A DNA stretch of 64,000 bases, from contig OY762721.1 in the NCBI GenBank assembly GCA_963666345.1, positions 1,856,001-1,920,000 of the forward strand. The letters run 5' to 3'. The position numbers and the translations under genes were made by a program. Positions 36,233-57,108 of this stretch are shown one piece after another. Positions within the stretch are counted from its first letter, which is position 1. Every line of letters begins with the position of its first letter. This DNA comes from Desulfatiglandales bacterium (GTDB taxonomy: Bacteria; Desulfobacterota; DSM-4660; Desulfatiglandales; Desulfatiglandaceae). The notes beneath the pieces were generated by a model. The model had not been told where the DNA came from and searched no databases. It saw nothing but the letters and a program-made list of their open reading frames with translations.

Positions 36233-36388
36233 TTATCCCAGTCGAGTATCCTGGCCGGTATTACCACAATCCGGGATATAGCACGTAATGTCTATAAACT
36301 CGCACTTTTCACTGCAAGAGGGGCATTTCTCCGGAGGCGTTTCCGCCTTGAGGGTATACCCGCAATTCGTACACTTCCAATCGCCCAT
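36233..36388 (-). CDS. Small rubredoxin-like protein with extra Cys tail (51 aa; not in ORF track)
   Basis: MGDWKCTNCGYTLKAETPPEKCPSCSEKCEFIDITCYIPDCGNTGQDTRLG; GGAGG RBS. Confidence 0.8.
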   Translation of the reverse strand: MGDWKCTNCGYTLKAETPPEKCPSCSEKCEFIDITCYIPDCGNTGQDTRLG

Positions 36389-51173: not shown

Positions 51174-51561
51174 ATCGTCTTCCTCTCCTTTTATTCACCT
51201 TCAAAATAGACGCCCTCAGGAGGTATAATCGGAGACCTTCCTTCTGCGGGCCTAGCGTGTAAAAGCGGACCTGCTGTCCATATTCTCTTTAACTGATAGT
51301 TCCGCCTGGAGGGCGGAATCAGGGACTGACCGAGAGCATTAAAATTCAGGTATGTTTTTCATGTCAACATTTCTTTTTGCGGTTATATTAAACACTATTT
51401 CATTTACGATCTCAAGGCAGGCGGCGCCAGGTGAGAACTTTTTGTTAATTTAAGACCGGAGCCCCGCTTCGTTCAACGCCTTTACCCTCACGCCTTCGGC
51501 ACTTACCCCTGTTTCATTCGGCCAGAAACAGATACCCATTTTCTTGTTCAATTTTCTGCCA

Positions 51562-51890
51562 TACACACAAGAGCAGGTGCCGGAGCTGTTTCAGGAGGCC
51601 TTATCTCACAAAAAAATACCACAGGAAGTTCCAGTGGCCGTAGACCGGGCTTTCCTCCCGGGAGCCCCATCAGTTCGGGTAACGCCTGCAAAAGCCCGGG
51701 GATACGGCCGCTTTTCCGTAACACATAGAGAAGGCCGGATGAAAGAGTGCCGGCGCCTGCGCGCACCGGCTAAAGATGCGAGAAAAGAAAAAAAGGGGCA
51801 TGGTTATTTTATACGGAAAAACCGGAAACGCACCCCTGTCCATTATTTTATACCTTTGTTTGTTTGCGCACAAGAGCAGGTGACGGAGCG
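51562..51890 (+). repeat. Repeat family A, one unit plus start of a second (period 303 bp)
   Basis: CAAGAGCAGG at 51568 and 51871. Confidence 0.92.
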
Positions 51891-52041
51891 TGACCAAGTA
51901 AATAAAATAAGACTCACACCCATAGATGTTGACCCGGACTATTGTTTATGAATAATATCAAGAGTTGGAATATTTTATTTAAGACCCCTTTCGGCAATCT
52001 AAAATCAAGCTTTACCCGGAGGCCCAGGCCCTTTCTTAATT

Positions 52042-53466
52042 ATGGCAAAAACTGAAAATATCCGCCCTTTAAAAGGGAAACAGTTCAGACTCGTAAAATT
52101 TTTCGCCTATGCCAGCTTCATCGTCCTCGCCCTGGCCAGCTTTCCCTTCTCCGTTGTCATATCTCAGCAGGCAAAGGATCTTCTCACAAAAAGCTACGAA
52201 AACTACGCCCTTTTTCTGGGTGAGAACCTCAACCACCAGGTATTTCAAAACTTTGTCATTCCTGTGACTATGCGTTTCGGGCAGATACGGCTTAGGGAAA
52301 AAGAACAACATGATCTGATGGACCGGATAGTCAAAAACACCACCCATAGCTTTAAGATGGACATGGTCAATATCTATGACATAGGCAAAGGTGTGGTCGC
52401 CTACAGCACGGACCCGGAGATTGTGGGTAAAAAGGTATCTGAAAATCCCGGCTATCTGTCGGCCGTAAAAGGGAAAAGCAGTTCCAGGCTTCTATCAGAG
52501 GAAGAAAGTCTCTGGGGCCTTGGCCTGGACCTGATCGGAGGAGAAAAAAAACTCAGGACCTATATACCATTTCGAAAAATGGGATATATGGCAAATGAAA
52601 AGGGTTATGTGCTCGGGGTGTTCGAACTGATACAGGACCTGACAACAGAGTACAAGTCGACAGTGAGACTTCAGTATGTCATATTCGGGCTTTCGCTACT
52701 TATAATGGGCTTCATATTCATCGCCCTCTTATTGATTGTCCATAAGGCCGAAAACATCCTGGAGCAAAGGGCAAGGGAGCAAAGAGAGCTTCAGGCTCAG
52801 CTCGATCAGGCCGAAAGGCTTGCAGCGCTAGGTCAGATGTGCGCCGGAGTATCCCATGAAATCAGAAATCCTCTGGGGATTATAAGAAGTACTGCAGAAC
52901 TGCTCGGAACGCTGCCTGACGCACAGGAAACCCAGAAAAACTTATCAGGCGTCATAGTCGAGGAGTCAACAAGGCTCAATAACATTGTTACCGAATTCCT
53001 CGATTTTGCGAGGCCTTCTGAACCCAATCTTCAGGACTGTTATCTGGACGAGATCATAACTAGGAATCTCTCCTTTCTCGGGCCTCACCTGGCTAAACAT
53101 GGAATCATCGTCAACAAAGATCTCAACCGCCCCCTGAGGATAAATGCCGACCCTCAACTCCTGTACAGGAGTTTCCTTAATATTCTCATGAATTCCGTGC
53201 AGTCCATGAAACAGGGAGGCGAAATAACCATAGAAGTAAACGAAGATGAAGAAAATTATATCCTTGCTATAAAAGATACCGGTTCCGGCATCCGTGGGAA
53301 AGACCTCGGTAAGATATTCAACCCTTTTTTCAGTACAAAGGATGAAGGCAGCGGGCTGGGACTTCCGATTGTGAGAAATATTATCGAAGGCCACAGGGGA
53401 TCGATCTGGATCGAAAGCGATGAAGGTTCAGGAACCATGGTCTTCATTAAACTGCCCCGTGCCTAG
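52042..53466 (+). CDS. Sensor histidine kinase (NtrB/ZraS-like)
   Basis: Two TM segments, VSHEIRNPL, DTGSGI, FNPFFSTK, GSGLGL. Confidence 0.93.
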   Translation: MAKTENIRPLKGKQFRLVKFFAYASFIVLALASFPFSVVISQQAKDLLTKSYENYALFLGENLNHQVFQNFVIPVTMRFGQIRLREKEQHDLMDRIVKNTTHSFKMDMVNIYDIGKGVVAYSTDPEIVGKKVSENPGYLSAVKGKSSSRLLSEEESLWGLGLDLIGGEKKLRTYIPFRKMGYMANEKGYVLGVFELIQDLTTEYKSTVRLQYVIFGLSLLIMGFIFIALLLIVHKAENILEQRAREQRELQAQLDQAERLAALGQMCAGVSHEIRNPLGIIRSTAELLGTLPDAQETQKNLSGVIVEESTRLNNIVTEFLDFARPSEPNLQDCYLDEIITRNLSFLGPHLAKHGIIVNKDLNRPLRINADPQLLYRSFLNILMNSVQSMKQGGEITIEVNEDEENYILAIKDTGSGIRGKDLGKIFNPFFSTKDEGSGLGLPIVRNIIEGHRGSIWIESDEGSGTMVFIKLPRA

Positions 53467-53480
53467 GTGGAGCGCATACT

Positions 53481-54845
53481 ATGGAAACAATTCTTATAGT
53501 GGACGACGAAAAAAATTATCTGGTGGTTCTGGAGGCGCTGCTTTCACCGGAAGGATATGAAATACTTACCTGTCAAAACGCCAAAGATGCATTGGAGCTT
53601 ATAAGGAACTCCGATCTTGATCTGGTCATTACGGACATGAAGATGCCCGGCATGAGCGGTATGGAACTGCTGAAAAGCTGCAAAGCCATGAAATCCGAGC
53701 TGCCCGTAATAATAATGACCGCATTCGGTACTATCGAAATGGCGGTTGAGGCGATGAGAGAGCAGGCCTATGATTACATAACCAAGCCGTTTCAAAATGA
53801 AGAACTGAAGCTGACCGTAAAAAAGGCCCTGAAAAACTTCCGCCTTGTAAAGGAAAACATACGGCTCAACGAGGCACTGACCGACAGGTTCAAATATGGG
53901 AATATGGTCGGCAAAAGCTCACCCATGCTCAAGATATACGATATCATCGACAAGGTTGCCCAGTCAAAGGCCTCCGTGCTAATAACCGGACCCTCCGGAA
54001 CCGGAAAGGAACTGATAGCAAAGGCCATTCACTATGGAAGCCCGAGAAAGGATGAACCCTTTATCTCCATAAATTGCGGAGCACTCACGGAGACCCTCCT
54101 TGAAAGTGAGCTGTTCGGCCATGAGAGGGGTGCCTTTACAGGGGCCGTGGCAATGAAAAAGGGGCGGTTTGAAATGGCGGACGGCGGCACCCTGTTTCTT
54201 GACGAGGTGGGTGAAATGCCTCCCCCCCTGCAGGTAAAACTGCTGAGAGTTCTGCAGGAAATGGAATTTGAAAGGGTTGGAGGTACAAGATCGATAAAGG
54301 TTGACGTGCGTGTTCTTTCAGCATCCAACAGAGATATCAAGGACGATGTCTCAAAAGGCGTTTTCCGGGAAGACCTCTTTTACAGGCTTAATGTCATTAA
54401 AATCGACGTGCCCCCTTTATGTGAAAGAACGGATGACCTCCCCCTGCTTGTAAGGCACTTTATTCAGAAATATAAAGAGGAAGGTTCGTCGGAGACATCA
54501 GGATTAAGCCCTGAGGCGTGGAAGGCTATTTATTCATATGGCTGGCCCGGAAACGTCAGGGAGCTTGAAAACGTCATTGAAAGGGCGGTAGTTCTCAACT
54601 CCGGAGGCACCATTTCGGCTGAAGACCTGCCTGATGAACTGACCGGCGCTGAAACCGAATTTGATGTGGACAGATTCGTCCCTGTAAATATACCTCTTCC
54701 TGAAGCACTTGAAAGGATTGAAGAAAAACTGATAAGACGTGCACTTTCCCAAAACAAAAATATACAGGCCCATGCTGCAAGGATGCTCGGAATTACAAAA
54801 AGCCTGATACAGCATAAAATGAAGAAGTACAATATCAATGTTTAG
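53481..54845 (+). CDS. Sigma54-dependent response regulator (NtrC family)
   Basis: REC, GPSGTGKE, GAFTGA, WPGNVREL, HTH. Confidence 0.95.
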   Translation: METILIVDDEKNYLVVLEALLSPEGYEILTCQNAKDALELIRNSDLDLVITDMKMPGMSGMELLKSCKAMKSELPVIIMTAFGTIEMAVEAMREQAYDYITKPFQNEELKLTVKKALKNFRLVKENIRLNEALTDRFKYGNMVGKSSPMLKIYDIIDKVAQSKASVLITGPSGTGKELIAKAIHYGSPRKDEPFISINCGALTETLLESELFGHERGAFTGAVAMKKGRFEMADGGTLFLDEVGEMPPPLQVKLLRVLQEMEFERVGGTRSIKVDVRVLSASNRDIKDDVSKGVFREDLFYRLNVIKIDVPPLCERTDDLPLLVRHFIQKYKEEGSSETSGLSPEAWKAIYSYGWPGNVRELENVIERAVVLNSGGTISAEDLPDELTGAETEFDVDRFVPVNIPLPEALERIEEKLIRRALSQNKNIQAHAARMLGITKSLIQHKMKKYNINV

Positions 54846-54846
54846 C

Positions 54847-54941
54847 GGTTTAAAATATTGTATCCATGTTTTTACTGTAAATTCAAAGCGTTAAACCGAA
54901 ATAGCAATCCATGGGCGATATTGGGTACAATATTTTGTACC
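54847..54941. promoter_or_regulatory. Two candidate enhancer sites
   Basis: GGTACAA-TATT-TTGTACC at 54924-54941; a 15/18 match to its reverse complement (GGTTTAAAATATTGTATC) at 54847-54864. Confidence 0.6.
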
Positions 54942-55037
54942 TTTTATGCCCAGGCAAAAAAGGGTCACGCCTGACATCCTGCTTAAATATTCAATTAATT
55001 CAATAGATTACCAATTTACCGCAAAATAAAGAGGGAT

Positions 55038-55053
55038 TGGCAGGCATATTGCA
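55038..55053 (+). promoter_or_regulatory. Sigma54 promoter
   Basis: TGGCAGGCATATTGCA (GG-N10-GC); IHF-like ATTCAATAGATTA at 54998-55010. Confidence 0.75.
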
Positions 55054-55062
55054 TAATCTATT

Positions 55063-55123
55063 GTCAGTCAAATTACTCTTTCCTCCTAAAAAACCAACCG
55101 TCCTTAAGGGCGGTTGGTTTTTT
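55063..55123 (+). ncRNA. Candidate ~60-nt sigma54-dependent small RNA
   Basis: No credible ORF between promoter and terminator; single-stranded ACUCUUUCCUCCU seed. Confidence 0.55.
55088..55123. terminator. Bidirectional intrinsic terminator
   Basis: AAAAAACCAACCGTCC-TTAA-GGGCGGTTGGTTTTTT. Confidence 0.88.
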
Positions 55124-55192
55124 ATACCCTGCTCCAAAATGCGCCACATGCTGAAGCCGCAAGATTTTATCCAATCGGCCTGTATGCCGGCA

Positions 55193-56077
55193 TCAATAGC
55201 CCAGATTTCGAAGGATCCTCGAATCTCTGCTCCAGTTTCTGGACACTACCACTGTAAGATCAAGAAAGATCCTGCTTCCGAATATCTGTTCAAGCTCCTT
55301 CCTGGCCGAGGTGCCGATCTCCTTTATGTTTTCACCTCTGCGGCCGATAAATATCTTCTTCTGAGACTCCGTTTCCACATGTATGCGTGCCTTAATTGAA
55401 ACAAGGTTTCTTTCAGATGCCTCGCCAATGGTATCAACAGTCACGGCGGATGAGTAGGGAAGCTCTTTTTTCATTCGCAGATAGATCTTTTCTCTTATGA
55501 TTTCAGAGACCATAAAGGACTCGGACTGATCGGTTTCCATATCAGGGGGGAAAAACTGAGGTCCCTTGTCAAGTCTTGACCTCAATTCATCAACAACGGC
55601 GTCAATACCCTCTCCATTCAAAGCGGACACAGGCAAAAAGGCCTCAAAAGGAAATTTACCCCTGTAGTGATCAATAATAGGGAGGAGTGCCTCTTTCGGC
55701 CTGATATCGATCTTGTTGATAACCAGAAGGCAGGGCTTTTTCAGGTCACGCATCCTCCTTAAAATATTGGATGATTCCTGATCAAAGGCCTTTTGGGTTT
55801 CTATCATAAGAAGGAGGATATCGACCTCATTGAACGCGGCGTATGAGGACTCCACCATGCTTTTGTGGAGAGCCGTCCTGGGCCTGTGGATACCGGGGGT
55901 ATCCACGAATACGATCTGGGAATTCTCCCCGTTCAAGATCCCCATTATCCTGTTGCGGGTAGTCTGCGGCCTGGCAGAGACAATCGCAAGCTTTGCGCCT
56001 GTAATTCGGTTTAAAAGCGTCGATTTACCTACATTAGGCGCCCCGAATATGCCGACGAAACCGGAATAAAAGCTCAT
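55193..56077 (-). CDS. era: GTPase Era
   Basis: GAPNVGKS, PQTTR, DTPG, NKID, KH domain; ATG overlaps upstream TGA. Confidence 0.95.
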   Translation of the reverse strand: MSFYSGFVGIFGAPNVGKSTLLNRITGAKLAIVSARPQTTRNRIMGILNGENSQIVFVDTPGIHRPRTALHKSMVESSYAAFNEVDILLLMIETQKAFDQESSNILRRMRDLKKPCLLVINKIDIRPKEALLPIIDHYRGKFPFEAFLPVSALNGEGIDAVVDELRSRLDKGPQFFPPDMETDQSESFMVSEIIREKIYLRMKKELPYSSAVTVDTIGEASERNLVSIKARIHVETESQKKIFIGRRGENIKEIGTSARKELEQIFGSRIFLDLTVVVSRNWSRDSRILRNLGY

Positions 56078-57108
56078 AAGCACTCCACCCTGATCGTTCC
56101 CCGGCTGATGGCGGACCCCTCTCTTACATCCGAGACCCTGGCCCCGCTTTTCATCTCTATCCATTTCATCCCCTCGTTTTTGTAGCCTCTGATAAGCGGG
56201 ATGTCTCTCTTGTTTGCATATATCATAATCTCCGAAGCCTTGCCCGGCCCGGGAAGGGACCCGGCCATTCTTACGCGGAATATCTCAGACCTTACCAAAA
56301 ACCCGAAGGCGCAATGCCAGGGGCCTCCCAATATCTGGCCCTTTTCCAGTAGGGATGGGGAACTCATCAGTCCTATCCTTATGACAGGGATCCCTTCCGC
56401 CTCAATTCGCATGCACGCCTTTGAGCAGAGATCGACCGCCTCTTTCAGCTCAAGAGGTTTATACCTTCCGTTTTCATACCATTCAGCCATTTCAGTCCCC
56501 TTTATCACAAGGGCCGGGTAGATCCTTACCATATCAGGTTTAAGAGCGACAACCTTTTCCACCGTCTCGAAAAAGCCTTCGGCACTGTCACCGGGAAGAC
56601 CGGGCATAAGCTGCATCCCGACCCTGAAACCGGCGTCTTTGAGTTTCTCAAACGCATTGATTGTATCAGAGGAACCATGCCCCCGGTTGGTAAGGCTCAA
56701 CACCTTGTCGTCCATAGACTGCACACCCAGTTCCACTGTCTCGACATGATAGTACTTGAGCGTGTCAAGACGTCTGTCCGCAAGCGCGTCCGGCCGTGTC
56801 GAAACACGAATCGTTTTAAAAAGGCCTTGCCTTATATAAGGTTCGGTAGCATTTAGCAGTTCCGTCATTTTGTCAAAAGGCAGTCGTGTGAAGGTGCCGC
56901 CGTAAAAGGCGATCTCCGGATTTCGCTCGGGATCAAAGCCCCTGGAGGCAACGGCCGTGTCCAGGGTTTTCCTCACATCCTGAGCACTCACGGCCCCTGC
57001 CGACCGGGATGTAATCCGCTCCTGTTCACAGAAGATACAGCGATGCGGACAGCCATGATGGGGGATAAAAATGGGAACTATAAACGGTTTCAAATCTCTT
57101 TCAGACAA
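56074..57108 (-). CDS. Elp3/YhcC-like radical SAM protein
   Basis: CPHRCIFC, FYGGTFT, STRPD, ELGVQS. Confidence 0.88.
   Translation of the reverse strand: MSERDLKPFIVPIFIPHHGCPHRCIFCEQERITSRSAGAVSAQDVRKTLDTAVASRGFDPERNPEIAFYGGTFTRLPFDKMTELLNATEPYIRQGLFKTIRVSTRPDALADRRLDTLKYYHVETVELGVQSMDDKVLSLTNRGHGSSDTINAFEKLKDAGFRVGMQLMPGLPGDSAEGFFETVEKVVALKPDMVRIYPALVIKGTEMAEWYENGRYKPLELKEAVDLCSKACMRIEAEGIPVIRIGLMSSPSLLEKGQILGGPWHCAFGFLVRSEIFRVRMAGSLPGPGKASEIMIYANKRDIPLIRGYKNEGMKWIEMKSGARVSDVREGSAISRGTIRVECL

Follow-up and report, generated by a model that had tools for sequence, protein, structure and literature searches.

Several sigma-54-dependent small RNAs (sRNAs) are encoded next to their own activator, such as Qrr beside luxO in Vibrio, Pxr beside an NtrC-like regulator in Myxococcus and GlmY beside glrK-glrR in enterobacteria. 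Control of porin synthesis by an sRNA is exemplified by MicF and ompF under EnvZ-OmpR in enterobacteria, where a short trans-acting RNA pairs at the Shine-Dalgarno (SD) sequence and start codon of the porin mRNA and blocks its translation; MicF is sigma-70- and OmpR-dependent, requires Hfq and pairs imperfectly. In Desulfovibrio vulgaris Hildenborough, the genes of two response regulators, DVU0679 and DVU0653, are each followed by a non-coding RNA (Dv_sRNA2 in the case of DVU0679), and the sections of the reports that deal with these RNAs state their function to be unknown and name no target for either (Rajeev 2011, PMC3333781; Kazakov 2015, PMC4641369). Here, we examined a stretch of 64,000 nucleotides (hereafter the window; G000:C1:1856001-1920000) from the single-contig genome of a Desulfatiglandales bacterium (4.16 Mb, 48% G+C), in which a predicted sRNA gene of about 61 nt (55064..55124, + strand) stands behind the gene of a sigma-54 enhancer-binding response regulator. 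Its promoter, seed and terminator almost certainly form a conserved functional unit, and this unit is very probably a sigma-54-dependent sRNA under the adjacent regulator. That the full chain exists, namely a two-component, sigma-54-driven sRNA repressing porin translation upon an envelope signal, is the reading that we hold to be probable.

The two related sites 77 bp apart, the IHF-like site, the promoter, the leader and the terminator all lie where the original prediction, made from the letters of the window, had placed them. The promoter TGGCAGGCATATTGCA (55038..55053, + strand) has the −24 GG and −12 GC of a sigma-54 promoter within TGGCAC-N5-TTGCW at the fixed spacing. The genome encodes rpoN (Sigma54_DBD at 212 bits) together with an AAA+ activator carrying GAFTGA, and activator sites are present about 80–200 bp upstream of the promoter. 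Sigma-70-like hexamers at 55037-55064 were dismissed, given their overlap with the sigma-54 promoter and the lack of conservation in their −10-like part. No + strand gene follows before the convergent era gene, which bears out the earlier statement that this promoter has no protein gene to serve. The 5' end of the RNA is placed from the geometry of the promoter and its 3' end falls in a U-tract. When folded from 55063, the RNA displays 24 unpaired bases and, after them, a hairpin of 17 pairs, and the leader, which had been described as unstructured, is indeed so and ends in CUCUUUCCUCCU. Within it, the seed AUUACUCUUUCCUCCUAAA (55072..55090, + strand) stays unpaired in the minimum-energy fold; it is the perfect complement of a porin mRNA from its SD sequence to the AU of its AUG.

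The hairpin (55087..55124), flanked by A- and U-tracts, is identified by folding and covariation as a Rho-independent terminator. On the + strand its energy is −25.2 kcal/mol (z −8.2, with 0 of 200 shuffles as good), compared with −20.7 kcal/mol on the − strand. The − strand form being weaker, the earlier argument that a G-U pair favours the + strand holds. A simple terminator scanner does not list this hairpin, though it is plain on folding; transcription of the convergent era gene probably ends there too. A cmscan of positions 54000-56000 against Rfam 15, with E values up to 10, returned 12 matches, all far under their gathering scores and terminator-driven; Qrr, Pxr, MicF and GlmY are absent among these 12. 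The sRNA family is a new one, outside every Rfam family, and of a known sort.

The conservation of this element is what carries its status as a functional unit. When a 501-nt query was run with blastn against 40 relatives, two conserved blocks stood out, the 3' end of the regulator gene and the stretch from promoter to terminator, and an alignment of 20 copies from 18 genomes was assembled. Promoter and seed, whose conservation in relatives the original prediction had made decisive, are invariant in all 20 copies: TGGCA and TTGC are kept with a fixed N6 spacing, and so is CUYUUUCCUCCU in the seed, while the 20–35 nt between promoter and seed are free to vary in length and sequence. This leader of variable length excludes a conserved open reading frame (ORF) on either strand. 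Conservation furthermore passes beyond the anti-SD core, to ACUCUUU on the 5' side and to UAA on the 3' side. In the terminator stem the sequence changes and the pairing stays, 10 of 12 pairs showing at least one double compensatory change among the relatives; four further predicted "pairs" are the promoter's own palindrome and are meaningless.

A covariance model (R1) comprising promoter, seed and terminator was built from the 20-copy alignment; as a search pattern, the element reads TGGCA-N6-TTGC-N(15-45)-CTYTTTCCTCCT. In its own genome R1 finds one copy (87.4 bits, E 1.5e-14), the next best match, at 27.7 bits, being a terminator. It is found in 94 of the 105 genomes of the family (41/43 of high quality, and 41 of 45 genera) and in 126 of the 151 genomes sampled from the order (80/90 of high quality). 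Within the order sample, its distribution among the families, designated f1 to f6, is 47/54 in f1, 3/3 in f2, 27/34 in f3, 0/5 in f4, 0/1 in f5 and 48/53 in f6. The class sample, in which the families are the same six as in the order, gives 130/151. In G016, which scored as negative, a contig end interrupts the orthologous activator gene (79% identity). Two sRNA copies in tandem, about 450–660 bp apart, occur in G015 (L013), G048 (L097) and G080 (L083), each copy with its promoter and proximal enhancer, and a second copy is found on another contig in G017 (C112, L025), G044 and G021. A set of 51 TGGCA-N7-TTGC stretches from unrelated taxa was rejected as chance matches, none of them having a terminator after it.

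The sRNA gene is tightly associated with the two-component system upstream. Synteny was assessed at one locus per genome (51 entries), the activator being counted where the flank reached at least 600 nt. In all 47 genomes with enough flank, the same strand carries an orthologue of the activator (70–79% identity) upstream, in agreement with the earlier expectation that the element would be conserved behind orthologous regulators, and its gene ends 194–281 nt before the promoter across these 47 genomes; the kinase gene is likewise kept upstream of the activator gene in relatives. In 42 of the 47, the era gene follows the sRNA in convergent orientation. In family f4 we detected no activator orthologue in the three genomes tested (best identity 40–45%), no sRNA (0/5 genomes) and no target motif (again 0/5). 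The joint absence of sRNA, activator and target motif in f4 fits a single unit.

In the window, the system consists of a sensor histidine kinase gene (52042..53466, + strand) and the response regulator gene (53481..54845, + strand). The kinase, recognised by Pfam HisKA and HATPase_c, is predicted by a hydropathy scan to have membrane segments at about residues 15-44 and 207-240, one on either side of a periplasmic part of about 165 residues, with HisKA and HATPase_c after them. The regulator combines receiver, AAA+ and HTH_8 domains (Pfam; Sigma54_activat E 8.3e-72), and GAFTGA is present in its translation. In NCBIfam the kinase core is nearest to AtoS/ZraS and the regulator to AtoC/NtrC/ZraR; as both are far under every curated cut-off, they are members of no named equivalog. 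The ~60-nt sRNA would then be the single, dedicated output of this two-component system.

Between the stop codon of the activator gene and the convergent era gene, a gap of 347 bp holds the sRNA element together with two enhancer sites, presumably the binding sites of the adjacent activator. The distal one, GGTTTAAAATATTGTATCC (54847..54865), comes directly after the activator stop codon, and the proximal palindrome, GGTACAATATTTTGTACC (54924..54941), lies some 100-115 nt before the promoter, the two starting 77 bp from each other. The proximal site was recovered in 48 of 50 genomes (at most two mismatches to GTACAA-N4-TTGTAC, 75-145 nt upstream of the promoter), most copies being perfect, and the distal site in 46 of 50 (at most three mismatches to the same palindrome, 145-215 nt upstream). 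In one relative (G109, L114), both enhancer sites read GTTRAA-N4-TTYAAC, having changed together; this paired change suggests a matching change in the DNA-binding helix of its activator. Between enhancer and promoter, the IHF-like site ATTCAATAGATTA (54998..55010) fits 8 of the 9 specified positions of what we take to be the IHF consensus, WATCAANNNNTTR. Sites resembling AAACAA-N4-TTA stand at this position in many relatives, a loose regular expression matching in only 27 of 50 genomes, and the IHF-like site is the least secure element of the locus.

As to the target, 1698 sites of the whole genome with an 8-mer complementary to the conserved core were scored by duplex energy. The best duplex other than the gene with itself is formed with the initiation region of a porin gene (−31.6 kcal/mol, next best −27.0). 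The site, 5'-UUUAGGAGGAAAGAGUAAUG-3', is located outside the window at G000:C1:2280562-2280543 on the − strand, and it ends with the start codon of a gene of 377 codons. The seed is perfectly complementary to 19 nt, which run from the SD sequence through the spacer to the second base of the start codon. After this site, the longest perfect complements in the genome measure 15, 14 and 13 nt, and 100 shuffled seeds gave a longest match of 16 nt, with a mode of 13. The 15- and 14-nt complements, at 536493(-) and 964381(-), likewise lie outside the window and neither is followed by an ORF of at least 40 codons; the former sits within a GGCTTAG...CTAAGCC hairpin. The protein encoded behind the 19-nt site (377 amino acids) carries a signal peptide with AMA at its end and F as its last residue, scores 36.7 bits against Porin_4 (cut-off 27) and is the sole Porin_4 match in the genome. 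Its predicted-structure neighbours are porins (TM-scores 0.77-0.91), and its nearest clusters in the Atlas are in Thermodesulfobacteriota. The evidence thus supports as target the genome's only recognisable general porin, with a predicted action that is specific to it and not directed at ribosome-binding sites in general.

The target region is also retained in relatives. Porin homologues (E ≤1e-10) were found in 11 of the 40 relatives, with 29–45% protein identity, and the 10 matched from residue 1 were examined, G031 being dropped because its match starts at residue 144. All 10 keep UUUAGGAGGA(A/G)AG(A/G)GU(A/U)AUG or a form shorter by one base, and their predicted duplexes range from −20.6 to −29.4 kcal/mol; the remainder of their 5' untranslated region differs. 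An exact degenerate 18-mer, TAGGAGGARAGRGTWATG, was matched in 43 of the 151 order genomes, against 0/151 for the reversed control. Of the 49 matches, five fall on the antisense of the sRNA gene; once these are set aside, 40/151 genomes have the motif. Allowing one mismatch gave 76/151 genomes, many through their own antisense, against about 25 for the reversed control; this search being too noisy, we relied on the exact pattern. Among 30 motif sites fetched, three are the sRNA gene itself, one precedes a Kelch-repeat protein and 26 precede genes of the outer-membrane protein (OMP) type. The products of these 26 genes start with M(K/R)K, and their signal peptides end in AMA or one of its close variants AVA, AIA, AMS, AAA and VMA; 22 of them end in F or W, two being cut by contig ends and two being short. 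Two motif-bearing porin-like genes, L159 in G062 and L160 in G063, have 218 and 247 codons and end in neither F nor W; they may be frameshifted or truncated copies. One genome with tandem sRNA copies, G015, has three OMP-like genes with the target motif.

Pfam analysis of 25 proteins encoded by motif-bearing genes placed eight over the Porin_4 cut-off, seven as weaker outer-membrane-barrel matches, nine without any match and one as Kelch. Three porin classes can be distinguished, of about 350–380 amino acids ending in WQINF, of about 400 ending in QFQITF and of about 440–480 ending in LVINW. As the motif stands before such varied proteins, several porin subfamilies share one initiation region; these motif-bearing subfamilies span four families of the order, and the shared region is 18–20 nt long. 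One double change has occurred in step, the target reading GUU instead of GUA where the sRNAs of G014, G030, G131 and G181 read AAC instead of UAC. The sRNAs of f3 read CUCUUUUCUCCU and pair with an unchanged AGGAGG through one G-U.

Taken together, these features suggest a simple regulatory chain. The membrane histidine kinase, through its periplasmic sensor part, would perceive the signal and phosphorylate the sigma-54 activator, which would bind the two GTACAA-N4-TTGTAC sites and, the intervening DNA being bent, would open the TGGCA-N6-TTGC promoter. The RNA made would consist of an unstructured 5' part and the terminator hairpin, and its seed AUUACUCUUUCCUCCUAAA would pair with 19 consecutive bases of the porin mRNA. 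The resulting duplex over the SD sequence, the spacer and the start codon would block 30S binding, and porin synthesis would fall. Since pairing over a start codon cannot activate translation, the sign of the predicted control is repression. We found no Hfq gene in the single-contig genome (96.7% complete; no match to PF17209, which matches in five control genomes), and a perfect 19-bp duplex is compatible with an Hfq-free action in such a genome. The original prediction had proposed a ~60-nt sigma-54-dependent RNA acting in trans as a repressor at ribosome-binding sites. Its core stands, with an invariant promoter and seed, a covarying terminator, synteny, enhancers and rpoN; its generic anti-SD part gives way to a seed that reaches the start codon of a porin gene.

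This generic part deserves attention, since one alternative retains it. The RNA could be a real sigma-54 sRNA acting as a general anti-SD repressor of the many mRNAs with a strong AGGAGG, or as a mimic of the 3' end of 16S rRNA, the porin being only its best-matching client. The invariant core CCUCCU is the anti-SD itself, sites of the AGGAGGAAAG type are over-represented in the genome, and the 8-mer GGAGGAAA, on which the example target formerly put forward (the gene at 36388) entirely depended, occurs 413 times, so that this example is abandoned. Moreover, pairing stays within the spacer in several families, and the extended target was not found in f6 genera. We nonetheless judge this explanation unlikely, because conservation goes past the anti-SD to ACUCUUU and UAA, because one site in the genome stands out with 19 nt against 15 or fewer elsewhere, and because the extended motif in relatives is almost exclusive to OMP-like genes; titrating hundreds of mRNAs would, besides, need an extreme abundance of a 60-nt RNA. 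An alternative of a different kind, in which the main target or partner of a real RNA is another mRNA or a protein and the porin match a by-product of a shared strong SD, also appears improbable. It draws on the 14-15-nt complements at 536493(-) and 964381(-), on the out-of-class relatives with different CU-rich seeds, for which the target search was without result, and on the link to the porin being one of sequence alone. It has to contend with shuffled seeds that never exceed 16 nt and with independent porin subfamilies that share an initiation region of 18-20 nt in four families of the order. Least credible by far is the absence of any sRNA, the hairpin then being a shared terminator of era and the regulator operon beside a fortuitous promoter and CU-rich stretch, or AGGAGG being the ribosome-binding site of a small − strand ORF. 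The hairpin, with its flanking A- and U-tracts, is indeed able to terminate on both strands, and a TTG located 9 nt after AGGAGG on the − strand opens a frame of 23 codons. But the promoter elements and the seed are invariant across the order while the 20–35 nt between them vary freely, and a conserved − strand ORF could not tolerate such a variable interval; in three relatives (L168, L177 and L176), the frames on that strand (a complete one of 23 amino acids, a complete one of 9 and one of 18 running to the end of the fetched DNA) encode unrelated peptides. The conserved enhancer sites, moreover, have no other gene to serve.

Several observations weigh against a porin-repressing sRNA as we propose it. 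We infer transcription, the 5' end, activator binding, repression and the signal, all of them from the DNA. Among the searchable sequencing runs, the stretch was matched by two DNA runs of one study and by no RNA run. The case for co-evolution is thin, consisting of the one double change, and the needs of translation alone could maintain a strong SD and an optimal spacer in front of abundant porin genes. The exact motif occurs in 40/151 genomes versus 126/151 for the sRNA. Pairing stops at the spacer in several f6 genomes, and in the f6 genera g30 and g37, whose seed has the variant GCUUUUUCCUCCU, no gene start with an extended complement was found; the complement of the variant seed, AGGAGGAAAAAGC, was searched for in five f6 genomes and rejected as a candidate, five hits being sRNA genes and three others lying off gene starts. 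Three Porin_4 genes in G123 and G033 have an ordinary SD only, with no extended pairing, and G074 has a C-to-G change inside the anti-SD while its porin-like gene retains AGGAGG. Finally, 25 of 52 distinct homologues have part of the seed base-paired in their minimum-energy fold; in the other 27, at least 10 of 12 seed nucleotides are unpaired, and in the genome studied here the seed is fully open.

Outside the class, R1 matches 19 of 146 genomes of the phylum sample, full-length but weakly (34–53 bits). The sequences inspected show the same architecture with other CU-rich seeds (e.g. UCUCCUUUCCUU), and an activator gene of 54–58% identity lies directly upstream in 3 of the 7 loci fetched. These three, L127 (G303), L128 (G239) and L132 (G208), come from other classes and each has, in addition to the activator gene, a sigma-54 promoter, a CU-rich stretch and a terminator. 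A search for targets of the out-of-class variant seeds gave only self matches plus one unrelated zinc-ribbon-like ORF. The weak full-length hits and the upstream activators lead us to a broader and tentative reading, which we regard as possible but rather doubtful. The element would be the founder, and the best-defined member, of a class of CU-rich sRNAs spread across the phylum Thermodesulfobacteriota and acting without Hfq, each wired to its own periplasm-sensing kinase and sigma-54 activator, and jointly making up an outer-membrane homeostasis system. It is no less speculative that unrelated OMP genes might have been enrolled in such a system by a shared 19-nt tag in their initiation region, with the DVU0653 and DVU0679 non-coding RNAs as diverged members.

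Regarding the neighbouring genes, the convergent era GTPase gene (55193..56164, − strand; Pfam MMR_HSR1 and KH_2) is outside the sRNA circuit. It belongs to a − strand string formed by rnc, a radical-SAM gene and era. The longest era ORF shares 91 nt with the end of the radical-SAM gene upstream (window positions 56074-56164), and in most relatives the era alignment starts only at about residue 20-32; the true start of era is probably an internal codon near 56075. An ORF of 135 codons at 51544-51951 was judged spurious: it matches no Pfam family, shows no membrane segment, and its sequence is basic and of low complexity.

How sulfate-reducing and related Thermodesulfobacteriota regulate gene expression after transcription has hardly been explored, and in the literature covered by our search, outside of which subscription journals lay, we found no description of this sRNA or of any sigma-54-dependent porin sRNA. 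At this locus, a whole circuit is legible from sequence across an order, with a kinase, an activator, two enhancers, one sRNA and one predicted target. If the proposed chain is true, it would provide a clear example of a very long perfect seed acting in a genome without Hfq, and would show outer-membrane permeability being gated by sigma-54, a factor that stays silent until its activator acts.

Comparison with the known systems places the locus between several of them. It resembles Qrr, Pxr and GlmY in having an sRNA gene beside its sigma-54 activator, and its duplication, in tandem in G015, G048 and G080, recalls that of Qrr1-5. These RNAs differ in that their targets belong to quorum-sensing regulators, development and glmS control, in their structures and in being mostly Hfq- or RapZ-dependent. 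The sigma-E-dependent MicA, RybB and VrrA are alike as envelope-triggered sRNAs that shut down abundant outer-membrane proteins, but they use another sigma factor and signal pathway and depend on Hfq. As far as the DVU0679 and DVU0653 RNAs are described in the sections that treat them, they share phylum and layout with the locus studied here, in that a two-component sigma-54 activator targets a non-coding RNA gene just downstream of its own; the DVU0679 regulator is given there with GAYTGS, whereas the activator studied here has GAFTGA. MicF differs from the predicted sRNA, which has a sigma-54 promoter with an AAA+ activator and a perfect 19-nt duplex, no Hfq gene found in its genome and no kinship to MicF in sequence or in Rfam. 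In function, MicF is nonetheless the closest, since here too an sRNA is predicted under a membrane-sensing two-component system and aimed at a porin start. The phylum-wide class, if true, would be the counterpart of EnvZ-OmpR/MicF and of sigma-E/MicA-RybB.

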